A DNA stretch of 64,000 bases, from the NCBI GenBank assembly GCA_951406725.2, contig OX597831.1:77996001-78060000 (forward strand). The letters run 5' to 3'. The notes below the pieces were generated by a model. The model was not told the origin of the DNA, ran no database searches, and saw only the letters and a list, made by a program, of their open reading frames with translations. A program made the position numbers and the translations under genes. The DNA comes from Octopus vulgaris (taxonomy: Eukaryota). Of this stretch, positions 4,156 through 62,470 are shown piece by piece. Numbering within the stretch: the stretch's first letter is position 1; each line of letters begins with the position of its first letter.

Positions 4156-4173
4156 GATATATACATACATACA

Positions 4174-4221
<48 letters not shown>

Positions 4222-4222
4222 C

Positions 4223-4295
<73 letters not shown>

Positions 4296-4750
4296 AGCTG
4301 GCAACTCTGAGGGGGATCCCGCGAGAATTGGGATGCGGGACGAGCGTGTCTGCATACGCGGACGACGTCACCGTCATAGTGTCTAGCCACGAGAACATCG
4401 GGCAGGTCGGCGAGACACTGAAAGACTACGAAGCGGTGACAGGAGCAAAAATCAACCGGGAAAAATCAGTGGGCTTGCGTCTCGGCACCTGAAGAAGCAA
4501 GCCCATGCCGTCCACCAGCGCCTCTGTCGTGGGACGCTGGACCGACGGTCCATCGAGTTGCTCGGGGTCTGGTTTGGTCCGAACCTCCAAATGGAGAAGA
4601 ACTGGAACGAGATAACGAGTAGGGTGGTCACTCTCGCCCGGCAATGGGCCGAGAGGAAACTGTCCCTAAAAGGTCGGGCGGAGGTGGCGATCTCGTACGT
4701 CGCGTCCGTCATCTCCGTCGTGCCTTGTCCCGACCCTACCATCACCAAAC
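4296..4750 (+). mobile_element. Tx1/L1-clade LINE fragment (RT YADD region), pseudogenised
   Basis: Translates VSAYADDVTVIVS...YEAVTGAKINREKSVGL and LGVWFG...WAERKLSLKGRAEV; in-frame stop at ~4490. Near-identical to 60976-61135. Starts immediately after (TATC)n. Confidence 0.85.
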
Positions 4751-4822
4751 ATAGGAGAAGGAAAGATCCAGAGAAGGGAAGACAGAGGGAAAAAAATCGC
4801 CAATTGTACACACGCGGTCAGA
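4747..4822 (-). mobile_element. Fragment of the Penelope-like family also at 25434-25640
   Basis: aggagaaggaaagatccagagaagggaagacagagg...cacacgcggtca is the diverged reverse complement of 25437-25510. Confidence 0.7.
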
Positions 4823-19720: not shown

Positions 19721-20140
19721 GTAGCTGAAGATACCTGTCTAGCCTTTGTAAACATATAAGAATTCTAATGAAATAAATCCACTGATTACAAAAATAGAAA
19801 TATTACATTTCTATTCATGAATTATAATTATTGGATGTATTCTATATTTCCTCATATCACCCATGGTAGTAACGGTGTACTTTCAAAATTCTCCGTAAAA
19901 GGACAGGTAATTCTCTAGTTAGATATATTGTTGCCGTATCTCTTATGCTTTAGGAAAGCGAGATCCACTTTTTCATACAAACCCCTCTCTGTCACAAATT
20001 TCGCCAGTTAACTGGTCATTTGTTTGAAAAGCTCTGATACAGATCGAATCACGTGGTCATGTATCATGAATCCCATTAATTTTAATGTAATACGCAGAAA
20101 TGTTATTTTCGATATTCAACTCCATCTGGAACCCTTTAAC

Positions 20141-20373
20141 CTATTTCTTTATTGCCCACAAGGGGCTAAACATAGAGGGGACAAACAAGGACAGACATAG
20201 GTATTATGTCGATTACATCGACCCCAGTGCGTAACTGGTACTTAATTTATCGACCCCGAAAGGATGAAAGGCAAAGTCGACCTCGGCGGAATTTGAACTC
20301 ACCACGTAACAGCAGACGAAGTACCGCAAAGCATTTCGCCCGGTGTGCTAACGCTTCTGCTAGCTCGCCGCCT
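20141..20373 (-). mobile_element. SINE family B, full-length young copy
   Basis: tatttctttattgcccacaaggggctaaac tail through gctagctcgccgcc head; central gcctttcatcctttcggggtcgataa core (Meta/MESC-like, tentative). Confidence 0.88.
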
Positions 20374-21019: not shown

Positions 21020-21413
21020 TATTCTTTTCTACTCTAGGCATAAGGCCCGAACTTTTGGGGGAGGGGGCTAGTCGATTAGATCGACCGCTCTACGCAACTA
21101 GTACTTAATTTATCGACCCAGAAAGGCAACGTCGACCTCGGTGAAATTTGAACTCAATACGTAAAGACAGACGAAATACCTATTTCTTTACTACTCACAA
21201 GAGGCTAAACACAGAGCGGACAAACAAGGACAGACAAACGGATTAAGTCGAATATATCGACCCCAGTGCGTAACTGGTACTTATTTTATCGACCCCGAAA
21301 GGATAAAAGGCAAAGTCGACCTCGGCGGAATTTGAACTCAGAACGTAACGGCAGACGAAATACCGCTAAGCATTTCGTCCGGCGTGCTAACGTTTCTGCC
21401 AGCTCGCCGCCTT
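21020..21413 (-). mobile_element. SINE family B composite (young copy joined to an older copy at gacgaaatacc|tatttc)
   Basis: Junction at 21180/21181; the two units carry different tails. Confidence 0.85.
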
Positions 21414-36600: not shown

Positions 36601-36704
36601 AAGCGCAAGGCGGGAGGAGGTTAGTCGATGGAAGGCAAGGTCGAACGCAGAACGTAAAACAGAGGGAAATGTTGCTAAGCACTAATAGAAATATTAATTT
36701 GTTT

Positions 36705-36921
36705 CAGATTTTGGCACAAGGACAGCAAGTTCAGGGAAGCTGTTGATTTGATTACATCGATCCCCAGTGCACAACTGGTATTTATTCTATCAACTCCCGA
36801 AAGGATGAAAGCAAAGTCGACCTCAGTGAAATTTGAACTCAGAACGTGGAGACGGCCGAAATGCTGTTAAGCGGTATATCCGGTGCACACTAATGATTTT
36901 GCCAGCACCCCAACTCCGTGA

Positions 36922-36955
<34 letters not shown>

Positions 36956-37950
36956 TGCAACAACAATGATGATGATTTCGAATTTTGGCAGAAAGCCAGC
37001 AGTTTCGCGGGTCGGATTAAGTTGATATCGTCGACCCCCAGAACTCGGTAGATGCTTTATTTTATCGATCCCGAAAGGATGAAAGACAAAGTCGACCTCG
37101 GCGGAATTTGAACTCAGAACGTTGCGACGGCCGAAATACCTGTTTCTTTACTACTCACAAGGGGCTAAACACAGAGAGGACAAACAAAGACAGACAAACG
37201 GATTAAGTCGATTATATCGACCCCAGTGCGTAACTGGTACTTAATTTATCGACCCCGAAAGGATGAAAGCAAAGTTGACCTCGGCGGAATTTGAACTCAG
37301 AATGTAACGGCAGACGAAATACGGCTACGCATTTCGCCCGTGTGCTAACGTTATTGCCACCACGCCGCTCTAACAACAATAATATTCATCATTAAAAATT
37401 TTTGCCACAAGGTCAGCCTGGGGTTGGGTGGGGATGAGTCGATTGCGTCAACCCCAGTGTACAACTGGTACTTATTTTATCGACTTCCGCAAGGATGAAA
37501 GGAAAAGTCGGCCTCGGCGGAATTTAAACTCAGAACGTAAAGGCAGACGAAATACTGCTTAGCATTTCGCCCGGCGTTGCTAACGTTTGTACCAGCTCAC
37601 TGCCCTAACAACTATAATAATAATGATTCCAAATTTTGGCACAACGCCAAGTTCGGTTGAGGGGATAACCCGATTACATCGACCCCAGTATTCAACTGGT
37701 ACCTATTTTATCGACCATGAAAGATTAAAAGCCAAGTCGACATCGGCGGCATTCGATTCTGCCAGCGATCTGCCTTCACAACAACAACGATAATGATAAA
37801 TCTTTCTAATACAGATACGAGGCCTACACTTCGGGAAGGGAGTCGATTAATCGATAGCATCGACTCCAGTAGTTGACTGGTACAATTTTTTTTTCTTTTA
37901 TCAACCCCGATGAAAGACCAAGTTTACATCGGTGGGATTTGAACTCGGAA
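36705..37950 (-). mobile_element. Cluster of about six co-oriented SINE family B copies
   Basis: Repeated cgaaaggatgaaag(g)caaagtcgacctcggcggaatttgaactcagaac units; junction ccgaaatacc|tgtttc at 37140. Confidence 0.85.
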
Positions 37951-38562: not shown

Positions 38563-38947
38563 TATTTCTTTATTGCCCACAAGGGGCTAAACATAGAGGG
38601 GTCAATCAAGGACAGACAAACGGATTAAGTCGATTACATCGACCCCAGTGCGAGCTGGCAGAAACGTTAGCAGGCCGGGCGAAATGCTTAGCGGCATTTC
38701 GTCTGCCGCTACGTTCTGAGTTCAAATTCCGCCGAGGTCGACTTTGCCTTTCATCCTTTCGAGGTCGATTAAATAAGTACCAGTTACGCATTGGGGTCGA
38801 TATAATCGACTTAAGCCGATTGTCTGTCCTTGTTTGTCCTCTCTGTGTTTAGCCCCGTCGTGGGTAGTAAAGAAATAGGTACTTAATTTATCAAATGCCG
38901 CTAAGCATTTCGCCCAGCGTGCTAACGTTTCTTCCAGCTCGCCGCCT
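38563..38947. mobile_element. SINE family B (+, ~38650-38877) nested in an opposite-strand family B copy
   Basis: The outer copy is interrupted at ccccagtgcg...ggtacttaatttatc; the inner copy runs head to tail on +. Confidence 0.8.
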
Positions 38948-39864: not shown

Positions 39865-40830
39865 TTCTGCTCGAGGCACGAGACCCGAAAATTTTGGGAA
39901 GGTGAGGGTCAGTCGATTAGATCGACCCCAGTACACAACTGGTATTTAATTTATCGATCCCGAAAGGATGAAAGGCAAAGTCGACCTCGGCGGAATTTGA
40001 ACTCAGATCGTAAAGACAAATGAAATACCGCAATGGATTTCGCCCGGCATGCTAACGTTTCTTATTTCTTTACTACTCACAAGGGGCTAAACATAGAGAG
40101 GTAAAACAAGGACAGACAAAGGGATTAAGTCGATTATATCGACCCCAGTGCTTAACTGGTACTTATTTAATCGATCCTGAAAGGATGAAAGGCAAAGTCG
40201 ACGTAGCGGCTGACGAAATACCTATTTTTTTACTACCCAGAAGGGGCTAAACACAGAGAGGACAAACGGATTAAGTCGATTATATCGACCCCAGCGCGTA
40301 ACTGGTACTTATTTAACCGACCCCGAAAGGATTTTGAACTCAGAACGTAGCGGCACAAGAAATACCTATTTCTTTATTACCCACAAGGGGCCAAACACAG
40401 AGAGGACAAACAATGACAGACAAACGGATTAAGTCGATTATATCGACCCAAGTACATAACTAGTACTTAATTTATCGACCCCGAAAGGATGAAACGCAAA
40501 GTCGACCTCGGCGGAATTTGAACTCAGAACGTAACGGCAGACAAAATACCTATTTCTTTATTACCCACAAGGGGCTAAACACAGAGGGGACAAACAAGGA
40601 CAGACATAGGTATTAAGTCGATTACATCGACCCCAGTGCGTAACTGGTACTTAATTTATCGACCCCGAAAGGATGAAAGGCAAAGTCGACCTCGGCGGAA
40701 TTTGAACTCGGAACGTAAAGACGGGCGAAATACCGCAAAGCATTTCACCCGACGTGCTAACGTTTCTGCCAGCTCGCGGCAGACAAAATACCGCTAAGCA
40801 TTTCGCCCGTCGTGCCAGATCACCGCCTTT
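39865..40830 (-). mobile_element. Nested/tandem array of five SINE family B units
   Basis: Junctions gaaatacc|tattt at ~40222 and ~40366, and aaaatacc|tattt at 40550. 16-bp TSD cggcagacaaaatacc at 40535-40550 and 40777-40792. Confidence 0.9.
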
Positions 40831-53801: not shown

Positions 53802-54665
53802 CTGGAATTGTAGGCCCGTCTCTTGTAATTTCGATCAATTGTATTTTGTCCTCCCTCTTGTATAGAAGTGTGGCTACAATCCATCCTACCTCTACTTTTT
53901 TTTTTTTTTTGGCGGGGGTGCATTTTAAATTTTTTTCCGGGACGTCCTACGTCCCAGATATAAAAGTAAAAGTAAAATATTTCCACTTTGCAAGTTCGAG
54001 TCGAGTACTCCCTTGCATGCTCCGTTGACTCGAATCTTGCTTCTCTTGTGGCGAATTTACCGCCTCTGATTAGATACCTTTCAAAGTCGCACCAAGACAC
54101 TTTTCGAAGGTGCTTTCCTCCATGTGTTCAAATCTTCTTTATTCTCTACATTGTATATTTTAATTTAATTTTTTATTATCCATCTGGACTATTCCATTTC
54201 TGCACGCTAATTTTATTTTTTATTTATTCCCATTCATGTGAAACCACTTATTCAAGTTCAACTCCTTGATGTAATTTTATACCAATTGCTATTTTTACTT
54301 TTGTTATGTTACGATTTAATTATTATATAATACTTTAGTTTGATTTTAATTATTACTTACTACATATAATTCAATTGTTATTATTATCTCTAATTTTAAT
54401 TGTTAAAGTGAAAGTATCTGACATAAAATAGAGAAATGTTTTTGTTTCACTTTTAACACGTAATACTGAAATAGTGGAGAAGATATGATATTGCTATGGG
54501 CTCGCCCTAGGAAAGAAGTTGAACATTTTTTTCCCCATGAAACTACATGGACCCTAAGTAAGGCATGTGTAAAATTTGAATGAAATTGGTTGTGTAGTTC
54601 TCAAGTTTTAGGGAAACACACTGACAGACAGACAGACACACATTCTCAGTTTTATATATGTATAT
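53802..54665 (-). mobile_element. Non-autonomous Helitron-like element
   Basis: Minus strand starts tatataaaactgagaatgtgtg(tctg)n, as at 15457; ends gacgggcctacaattCCAG|T. Confidence 0.5.
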
Positions 54666-54684
54666 ATATTATTAACACCTAAAG

Positions 54685-55325
54685 AAAGGCGACATGAAAA
54701 CAGAATCGTGAGCGTGCCGGTCGAAATGGTTTGCGGCATTTCATCCGCCTTTACGTTCAGGGAGACTTTGTCTTTCATCCTTTCGGGATCGATAAATTAA
54801 GTACCAATGAAACACTGGGCTCGATGTAATCGACTACACCCCTCCCCACAAAACATTTCAGACCTTGTGCCTTTAATAGAAAGGATTATTATAGCGATAT
54901 CAAAGGTAGTGACCTGGCAGAATCGTTTGCATGCCGGACGAAATACTTAGCGGCGTTTCATCCGTCTTTACGTTCTAAGACTAAATTCCGCTGAGGGTGA
55001 CTTTGCCTTTCATCCTTTCGGAGTCGATAAATTAAGTACCAGTGAAACACTGGGGTCGATGTAATCGACTACACCCCTCCCACCTACCCACCAATTTTCA
55101 GGCTTTGTGCCTTTAGTAGAAAGGTTTATTATAACAATATCAAAGGCAGTGACCTGGCAGAGTCATTAGCATACCGGACGAAATGTTCTAAGTTCAAATT
55201 CCACCGGGGTCGACTCTGGATTTCCTCATTTCGGGGTCGATAAAATACGTACCAGTCATGGGGCCAGTCGAAGTAATCGATCCTCCACAATGTCAGGTCT
55301 TGTGCCTATTGTACAAAGCATTATT
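54685..55325 (+). mobile_element. Three tandem older-subfamily SINE family B copies
   Basis: Units of ~215-240 bp ending ttgtgcctttaatagaaaggattatt. Confidence 0.8.
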
Positions 55326-55832
55326 AATATCTAAATAAATTAGAGGTAATATATCTGACGAACGGCTCTGCGAGAAACCAAAGACTTAGCTTCGAAGCAA
55401 ACCGGTTTTTCAAACCAATTTTTAAAATGTTTCACTGTACTTAGGTATAATTTCTGTATCTTTTTACGATTTAGTTAACGAACGAAGGGCCATGCCTATA
55501 ACCACTTCCATGTGACCCTAAATAGGTGATACAATATTTAGAGTGGTTTTATTATTAGAATACGTTTCTGGATCACAGTCGGTAGCGAATTAGCTGAGTC
55601 AGAAGAAATGCTTTACCGGATTTTACGTTCTGTGCTTAAATCACGTCCAAACCAGCTTTGCCATTCATTTTTCTGGGGTTTCGATAAAATACTGTTTACG
55701 CCGATGGGTTGGCGTGCGCTTTTGGAGCGGCGGACGAGGTCCGTTGTGTTATTCCTTCCGGGTCGTTTCGCTCTCCGTTCAAATATCACTGTGACCTACA
55801 TGAACGGTAGATTTACTCCGTCAACTCGTTTA

Positions 55833-60972: not shown

Positions 60973-62470
60973 AAATGGAACGAGATAACGAGTAGGGTGG
61001 TCACTATCGCCCGGCAATGGGCCGAGAGGAAACTGTCCCTAAAAAGTCGAGCGGAGGTGGCGAACGCGTACATCGCATCCGTCATCTGCTACCGCCTGAC
61101 CGTCGTGCCTTGTCTCGACCCTACCATCACCAAACTAGAACGCATTCTCTTTCATTTCTTGTGGAAAGGATTCGTCCCGATGGTCAGGACTGTGCATGCC
61201 GTGGTTGATGATGCGCAGACACGAGCTGAGACTACGACACCTCAGGCTCTACGTAGACGACGGTGAACAGGTGTGGTCACCGTTTGTGAGGTACGTCTTC
61301 CCGCAGCTCATCTCCATGACCAAACTGCAGTCGTGGATCAAAAGAGGCCGAAGAAGGGCGAATGGCATCGCGAGTGTCGCGTTGCTCTCAAGCAACTCTG
61401 CCGTCCCGGGTCGACCTTGAGTGACTCCAACACAACCCAAGCATTCAATAGGGGATTAGTGGAGGGGAGGTACGACGACGAGCTCGGAACGAACCTGGAC
61501 GTCGACGAGGAATACCTGACCCGCCTGTTCGGGACGACTTTCGGGCCAGGGCCCATGGACAATTTCCAGAGATCCCTGGCCTGACAGTGCTACCGAGAAG
61601 CGCTACCCGTTCGGGATAAGCTCTACAGACACGGCTCGAGAAACACGGGTCGACCTGCCCGAGATGCGGTCAGAGCGACGAAACCGTTCTGCACGCACTC
61701 GTGCAGTGTCCAACAATCTCCGACCTGTGGGCTTATGTCGAACAACTGCTGTCTCGTGTGGGACGAGTCGGTTTATCAGCTGAGTCTATCGTCAATATTG
61801 TCACGCCTCCTTCCTTCAAACGGGAAGGAAGAGCTATTTTCATCATCCTTGTGGCTATGGCGAAAGAAGGTATCTGGCGGACGCGTCTGAAAGGATTGGA
61901 GACAAACACTTTCCTCTCTGGTCAATCTCTCATCAACTTCTTCAAGTATCACTTGAAACGGAAAGTGAGAGTAGAGAGGCAAGTTTTGTCCAGCGAATGT
62001 TTTAAAAAAAGATGGGAGAATGTAGCAAGGATGGCATGTATGAATAACGAAGCCACCTTGAGCATAATCCTATGAACCCAGAAATTGAAAACAGAGGGTT
62101 ACCCACTTGCAAACAAATATGGTAACATATAACAATATTGACCGAGGTTACCATGGTCTTTTTCCTAGGCTTTTCTTCCCACGGATAAACCTTATCTGCT
62201 CCCCCTTTACACCGTACATCATGACACTGTGATACACGATCCCTATTGATCGTTTTTTCCCTCTTCCCCTTTTTTCCTCTTTTTTCTTCATTTTTCTTTT
62301 TTTCTTTTGTATCTTTTCCTTTTTTATCTTTTTTTCTTTTTTCCCTTTTACGATTCCTTTTGATCGAAAACCTATGCCACTTTCATTTTTTCTTCATTCC
62401 CCAAAAGAAAAGCTCTACCTTGTAATTTGTCCCATCTGTGTGCAGCCCTGTGTGGCCAGTAAAGAAACTG
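60973..62470 (+). mobile_element. 5'-truncated Tx1/L1-clade LINE inserted in (TATC)n
   Basis: WAERKLSLKSRAEVANAYIASVICY..FHFLWKG; zinc knuckle CPRCGQSDETVLHALVQCP (~61657-61713); stop at 62075; T-rich 3' UTR ending cagtaaagaaactg. (TATC)n on both sides; frameshifted. Confidence 0.88.

Follow-up and report, generated by a model that had tools for sequence, protein, structure and literature searches.

The window, 64,000 nucleotides of Octopus vulgaris contig OX597831.1 (assembly GCA_951406725.2, forward-strand positions 77,996,001 to 78,060,000), belongs to a microsatellite-rich 2.8-Gb genome assembled in 227 contigs. It contains an array of SINEs on the minus strand, between 39865 and 40827, built mainly from a short, non-coding and highly repeated family, here called B. 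The 230-nt consensus of this family, derived from 81 copies, consists of a head with what we take to be A- and B-box-like motifs, picked out by eye against the general box consensus, a middle that also occurs in the older sister families A1 and A2, whose tails are different, and a tail ending AAAGAAAT. ARAGORN and Rfam scans for a tRNA-derived origin gave no tRNA or other relevant match, and, for the conserved central domain of named SINE superfamilies (CORE, Deu/Nin, Meta; octopus OR1/OR2), a 10-mer had no match in the one supplement searched.

The array and related composites in the window

Read in SINE sense, the array starts with the retained head of a host copy (40793..40827, consensus about 1-47, with a small deletion) and the 5' copy of a 16-bp target-site duplication (40777..40792, consensus 48-63). 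An inserted, near-full-length B SINE follows (unit 1, 40551..40776, consensus 6-230 plus a terminal A), with a Pol III A/B-box-like head and a Tx1-type tail. The 3' copy of the duplication (40535..40550) comes next and forms the first 16 nt of unit 2 (40367..40550), which comprises B body and tail from consensus 48 and shows 18 differences from unit 1 over 183 positions. Units 3 (40223..40366, with 40 positions deleted) and 4 (40063..40222, also with a deletion) likewise begin at consensus 48, and the tail of unit 4 joins consensus position 15 of the remainder of an older A1 SINE (39865..40062, consensus 15-166 plus A1 tail), which forms the base of the stack. This junction at 40063/40062, the fifth of the array, had been missed in an earlier, sequence-only reading of the window. 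The five junctions aaatacc|t(a/g)ttt reported there, ending at 21180, 37140, 40222, 40366 and 40550, are all present. As the units differ from each other by ~10-17% and carry different deletions, the array is not a recent tandem duplication.

The 16-bp duplication is exact, with an identity that does not extend on either side. Both copies carry a non-consensus base, which had been put forward as a mark of true insertion; taken alone it is weaker evidence than this implies, because it results from CpG decay and lies at a position (consensus 55) that is polymorphic. The quasi-palindrome described at the junction exists in the consensus, but the variant base at 40550 breaks its outer pair and a causal role is unsupported: a C at +8 occurs in only 3 of 32 unique-site targets, and the predicted fold leaves the palindrome unpaired.

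Two further composites on the minus strand were said to lack a second head, and in both a single head was verified. In one, a B unit with the only head (21181..21411) precedes an A1 remainder from consensus 48 (21023..21180); in the other, the B unit (37141..37368) precedes an A2 remainder, again from consensus 48 (36975..37140, left end approximate). A B copy on the plus strand (38650..38878) lies antisense inside another B copy, at a second in-element GGTA site (consensus 137), where an intact duplication is absent, and a solo B copy is found in unique DNA (20139..20371, minus strand). The window also holds clusters of same-orientation A-type SINEs (36700-37800 and 54650-55330) with short (TTA)n or (TTG)n tracts between them.

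Tail junctions, target motif and two-headed insertions

Junctions are not uniformly distributed. Among 146 tails, drawn from the window and from loci at the start of C1 that had an exact tail at their centre, 71 continue at position 48 of a related copy, 6 at position 15, one at 51 and one antisense at 137, while 67 are unassigned (~4 of them junctions with deletions). In an enlarged sample, which adds 200 kb of unselected regions and requires a longer flank, and in which junctions played no part in the choice of loci, position 48 follows 78 of 158 tails; the unselected 200 kb alone gave 6 junctions in 13 tails. The exact tail pattern has at least 76,108 matches in the genome, the filter passing only part, so that extrapolation of the sampled fraction (about half) to these tails would put the copies involved at tens of thousands. 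The second unit at the 78 junctions is B in 46 cases, A-type in 22 and broken in 10; hosts therefore include the older A1 and A2 families (22/78) and not only the SINE's own.

The same site preference appears outside the repeats. Target-site duplications of 7-23 bp flank 32 of 48 full-head young solo copies. The youngest B subfamily has 2,884 exact matches genome-wide and was sampled with 71 copies at 70 loci, covering 72 of 100 places among the matches listed. In unique DNA, the upstream copy of its 32 duplications reads G28 G30 T30 A25 T16 T13 T17, and then falls to background (C3 G3). This profile of four strong and several weaker positions has the shape of L1 priming, where four critical terminal matches are aided by weaker ones, as described in the available text of the L1 snap-velcro paper (PMC3649969) and, for the correlation of 3' repeat and target-site duplication in RTE elements, of PMC6007223. 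In L1 and RTE the pairing sequence is poly(A) or a terminal microsatellite, whereas the octopus SINE would pair through a fragment picked up from the target it entered before. An A precedes the duplication in 27 of 28 downstream copies versus 6 of 28 targets; this A derives from the element. The preference is for the motif GGTA(TTT), which is used in unique DNA too and has its best, and very common, match in the SINE head.

Target motif and entry site depend on tail subtype. Position 48 is the entry site of 71 of 130 T-type tails and of 4 of 37 CA-type tails (p=1e-6), while position 15 is entered by 7 of 37 CA-type versus 3 of 130 T-type tails (p=0.001); in unique DNA, CA-type tails are often found at sites starting with AGA or ATAT. 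The young subfamily entered position 48 in 15 of 68 cases, compared with 2-4% predicted from its unique-site motif, and twice entered the element's antisense GGTA site, so that the length of the match seems to matter. Direct traces of bases templated by the RNA are scarce, with 6 toward and 1 away, and 5 versus 2 in a second tally. A third target motif specific to one lineage is seen at A1 tails, most of which have AATA or ATTA after them (32 of the ends tallied).

An exact pattern of host head, site and second head has 78 matches genome-wide, some of which are tandem repeats of one locus. We took the first 30 loci and removed one duplicate. In 24 of the remaining 29, a junction lies downstream of the inner tail, against a baseline of 49% (p=0.0003); at least 10 bases are repeated exactly in 17 of 29, and upstream variants recur downstream in 9 of 15. 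These two-headed insertions bear duplications of 10-17 bp. Judged by their sequence, genuine nested insertions exist (24/29 two-head loci). A control pattern at consensus 96-113 has 22 matches versus 78 at the site. By eye, these 22 are copies joined end to end past CATCCTTT and enclosed by outer duplications, with no short-duplication nested insertion at 96-113, so that 22 versus 78 is not a clean enrichment ratio. The joins suggest template jumps of the reverse transcriptase (RT). At loci L131-L152, head-to-head joins were seen in which a full copy comes after one broken off mostly just past CATCCTTT, often with extra A's and with one outer duplication; here the RT has likely jumped to RNAs that had a three-T run at their end.

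Three other patterns were considered. Copies deleted from 63 to about 90 do not behave as hidden truncated insertions, as about half of them are then followed by a junction, which is near baseline (by eye). A junction with duplicated AGAAAT is borne by several subtypes and does not mark one lineage. Loci L320-L349 come from a set of 388 matches, most of them junctions in which 5 nt of the tail end are repeated ahead of GGTATTT, again in several subtypes; repeated slips in priming are the likely cause.

Origin of the single-head composites

The possibility that all composites descend from one pre-formed dimeric master was tested, and no such master was found. The 46 B+B pairs comprise 44 subtype combinations, which excludes a single, Alu-like dimeric master with fixed shared diagnostic variants, and 22 of 78 second units come from other families. 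A SINE-derived satellite with homogeneous units does not fit either, as 31 of 46 neighbour pairs have no rare variant in common.

Two or more rare variants are shared by 9 of the 46 pairs, compared with 0.04 in shuffles. On this pattern the nine same-family pairs appear to be local duplications, and crossover or slippage thus does contribute. We consider it very improbable that the arrays arose mainly by unequal crossover or slippage between the GGTATTT of the head and similar sequence after the tail. Such a process would account for the nine pairs and for near-identical runs at L345-L349, and it has been proposed for SINE-derived tandem arrays, of which similar ones are described in a bivalve (PMC11481361) and in squamates (PMC10702118). 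It does not account for the 31 pairs without a common rare variant, the ~10-17% pairwise difference of the units in the window, the second units from other families, or the 10-17 bp duplications of the two-headed insertions. As the sole cause it is refuted; it remains as a secondary process. The arrays of Scapharca broughtonii and the squamate SINE satellites resemble the octopus arrays in having one full head followed by head-truncated units. They are ascribed to recombination among near-identical units, while the octopus neighbours are mostly unrelated and differ in age or family.

Divergence was then compared between the parts of the composites; the set used for ages and outer duplications includes loci picked on junction patterns. 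In B+A composites the A part (0.082) is about as diverged as solo A1 copies (0.081), and the B part is young (0.027). The outer duplications carry on average 1.56 mismatches in B+A1, 1.61 in solo A1, 0.5 in B+B and 1.02 in solo B; those of B+A1 are more decayed than those of B+B (p=0.002), while the difference to solo B is not significant (p=0.10). In composites with the young subfamily first, the second unit is older than the first (34/1092 vs 15/1090, p=0.009), and the head has diverged further than that of solo copies (12/407 vs 18/1609, p=0.011). Over all composites, head age and second-unit age show no correlation. The heads of B+A1 composites are mostly of the young B type, with T at position 19 in 5 of 25 versus 18 of 29 solo A1 copies, which needs either head replacement or an origin by read-through or template switching. 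A test for shared variants at positions 55-60 gave a modest excess (13 vs 5.0 expected).

Because the second units of young-first composites are older and their heads more diverged, we favour, from these comparisons, nesting in older genomic copies with loss of one head for what would be a substantial part of the composites. The suggestion that the 5' end is resolved by homology with the target thus gains from the age data, short of proof. The remaining composites are possibly read-through dimers or template switches. That such events produced most single-head composites, from many source loci or through the RT changing from one SINE RNA to another at their common GGTATTT, with nesting as a minority, seems to us distinctly unlikely. 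Outer duplications do surround many dimers, those of B+B are fresh, and B+B units are overall equally diverged (0.030 vs 0.032); together with the retention of a second head in only 3 of 78 sampled junctions, the last two points count against guided nesting. The young B+A1 heads, the template-jumping RT suggested by the end-to-end joins and the absence of a T4 terminator from the consensus also agree with dimeric RNAs. Against these stand the older second units and older heads of young-first composites, and the outer duplications of B+A1, which look as old as those of solo A1. Moreover, to arrive at 44 combinations in 46 pairs, a very large number of sources would be required, every one of them made by an insertion at the site, and the GGTA targets in unique DNA would be left unexplained. 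Reads placed on loci in search of filled and empty alleles were swamped by paralogues, and locus contigs ended inside the repeat.

Tx1-like LINEs and a proposed read-through guide

The last ~42-45 nt of the SINE match the 3' ends of zf-RVT LINEs. These LINEs, with APE endonuclease and RT, end in the SINE's terminal sequence without poly(A); the corresponding domains (PF03372, PF00078 and PF13966, the last being zf-RVT) were found in 3 of 3 ORF2s, which are Tx1-like by domains, and a hairpin end of the GCCCCTTGTGGGT type is common to 17 of 30 zf-RVT loci. Tx1-like LINEs with the SINE's tail, candidates for the partner that had been anticipated, are present, but none was seen inserted at the position-48 site in the loci and regions searched.

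Several side observations concern these elements. A 5'-truncated Tx1-like LINE with a related hairpin tail lies inside a (TATC)n microsatellite in the window (60976-62467, plus strand), and a similar copy elsewhere (L086:1-1170) is also followed by (TATC)n, which suggests a microsatellite-targeting family. The window further contains an isolated fragment of a Tx1-like reverse transcriptase (4169-4761, plus strand). Of two LINEs (L170:4635-4945, L128:1126-1445), one terminates in the tail of A1 SINEs and the second in an A2-like tail with (ATT)n after it, so a different Tx1-like LINE may have supplied the tail of each of the three sister families. At L260-L262 (C2:73.04-73.07 Mb), five LINEs with ORF1 and a 1140-aa ORF2 are arranged head-to-tail, about 5.4-5.7 kb apart, with no intervening SINE seen.

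The strongest alternative to the reading preferred below is that the site preference is encoded by protein: a sequence-specific Tx1 endonuclease would nick Y|GGTA(TTT), the SINE would inherit the preference of its partner, and T- and C-type tails would use different LINE families. We regard this as unlikely. In its favour, Tx1 families that insert at fixed targets and carry SINEs as passengers have been described (PMC4494074), the genome contains several Tx1-like families whose tails are related, one of them found twice in (TATC)n, and the bases at the first four positions of the target are very strongly fixed. However, no LINE end was found at the SINE's site in 30 zf-RVT loci, 20 further LINE regions, five pattern searches and a 1.99 Mb scan (150 of 25,803 candidates scored). 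GGTA followed none of 23 LINE ends bearing this terminal sequence, and the 17 LINE copies that best match the T-type tail over the last 20 bases show no GGTA preference.

In our preferred reading, to which we assign a probability of roughly 55%, the guide would lie in the RNA: transcripts that read through past the tail into GGUAUUU would pair with the nicked target and prime reverse transcription there, biasing tails to position 48. A Tx1-like ORF2 would bind the tail hairpin and begin copying at a fixed internal point. Where a run of four T residues is missing, Pol III is expected to read through into the flank; none occurs anywhere in the family B consensus, so Pol III likely runs on into the 3' flank, which would be the target sequence of the parent copy itself. 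SINE transcripts would then continue beyond AAAGAAAU into target-like bases, and T-type RNAs would bear a 3' extension starting AGGUAUUU. By base pairing this extension would choose among nicks, so that under the proposal each lineage inherits the target motif of its parent, with the flank serving as its short guide. A founder with a T-type tail that landed at position 48 could have started a positive loop, because a long match would be available in every related head. The 5' part of the cDNA would mostly pair with the host head and leave one head, unequal crossover or slippage would later multiply some units, and some dimers would probably be mobilised as read-through units. Tail subtype could instead choose different LINE partners.

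Two of the steps have parallels in studies on rDNA elements: in R2Ol, read-through target sequence raises insertion (PMC6530143), and in R1 homologous 5' sequence gives precise junctions (PMC2718515). As proposed here, target sequence on the RNA 3' end aids priming and homologous 5' sequence leads to seamless junctions. Unlike the octopus SINE, which is non-autonomous and uses a short, relaxed motif that differs among subfamilies, R2Ol and R1 are autonomous, with strict protein specificity. The crocodilian SINEU/Tx1-Mar system is also similar, as far as PMC4494074 was available, in that a SINE prefers defined regions of another repeat, apparently via Tx1 machinery. SINEU targets a Mariner DNA transposon and has a known matching LINE, while the octopus SINE enters the head of its own or a sister family with single-base precision, and no matching LINE was found among the candidates scored.

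The available text of a repeat annotation of octopus (PMC13282606) reports many unclassified SINE families and recent L1-Tx1 activity, and the word 'nested' does not occur in it. No account of a self-targeting SINE system was found in the literature surveyed, mostly open-access papers, including the available portions of PMC4824008, PMC4758252, PMC5804259, PMC3747384 and PMC6007223; supplements and repeat databases may already name the family.

The earlier proposal of site-preferring, self-targeting, target-primed insertion holds in so far as independent insertion is supported; the motif is not exclusive to the head, A1 and A2 copies are hosts as well, and local duplications contribute. A self- and sister-targeting SINE is real at genome scale; it combines known mechanisms in a way not found in the literature surveyed. 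More tentatively, and with the odds in our view somewhat against it, family B may be a Pol III retroelement with heritable target memory. Its 3' flank would be a guide inherited without protein change, and in one lineage this guide would have matched the element's own head. The result would be an element that homes to a single base in its relatives and replaces their heads through pairing of the cDNA, with old SINEs becoming promoters and hosts for the young subfamily.

The junctions form a large natural data set on the shares of RNA-DNA pairing and endonuclease in the target choice of LINEs and SINEs, a question that bears on tools for RNA-templated gene insertion. Dating by nested insertions and repeat annotation both assume random targets and will misread the family B SINE. 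For the SINE itself, insertion into relatives could be a way to spread at low cost.
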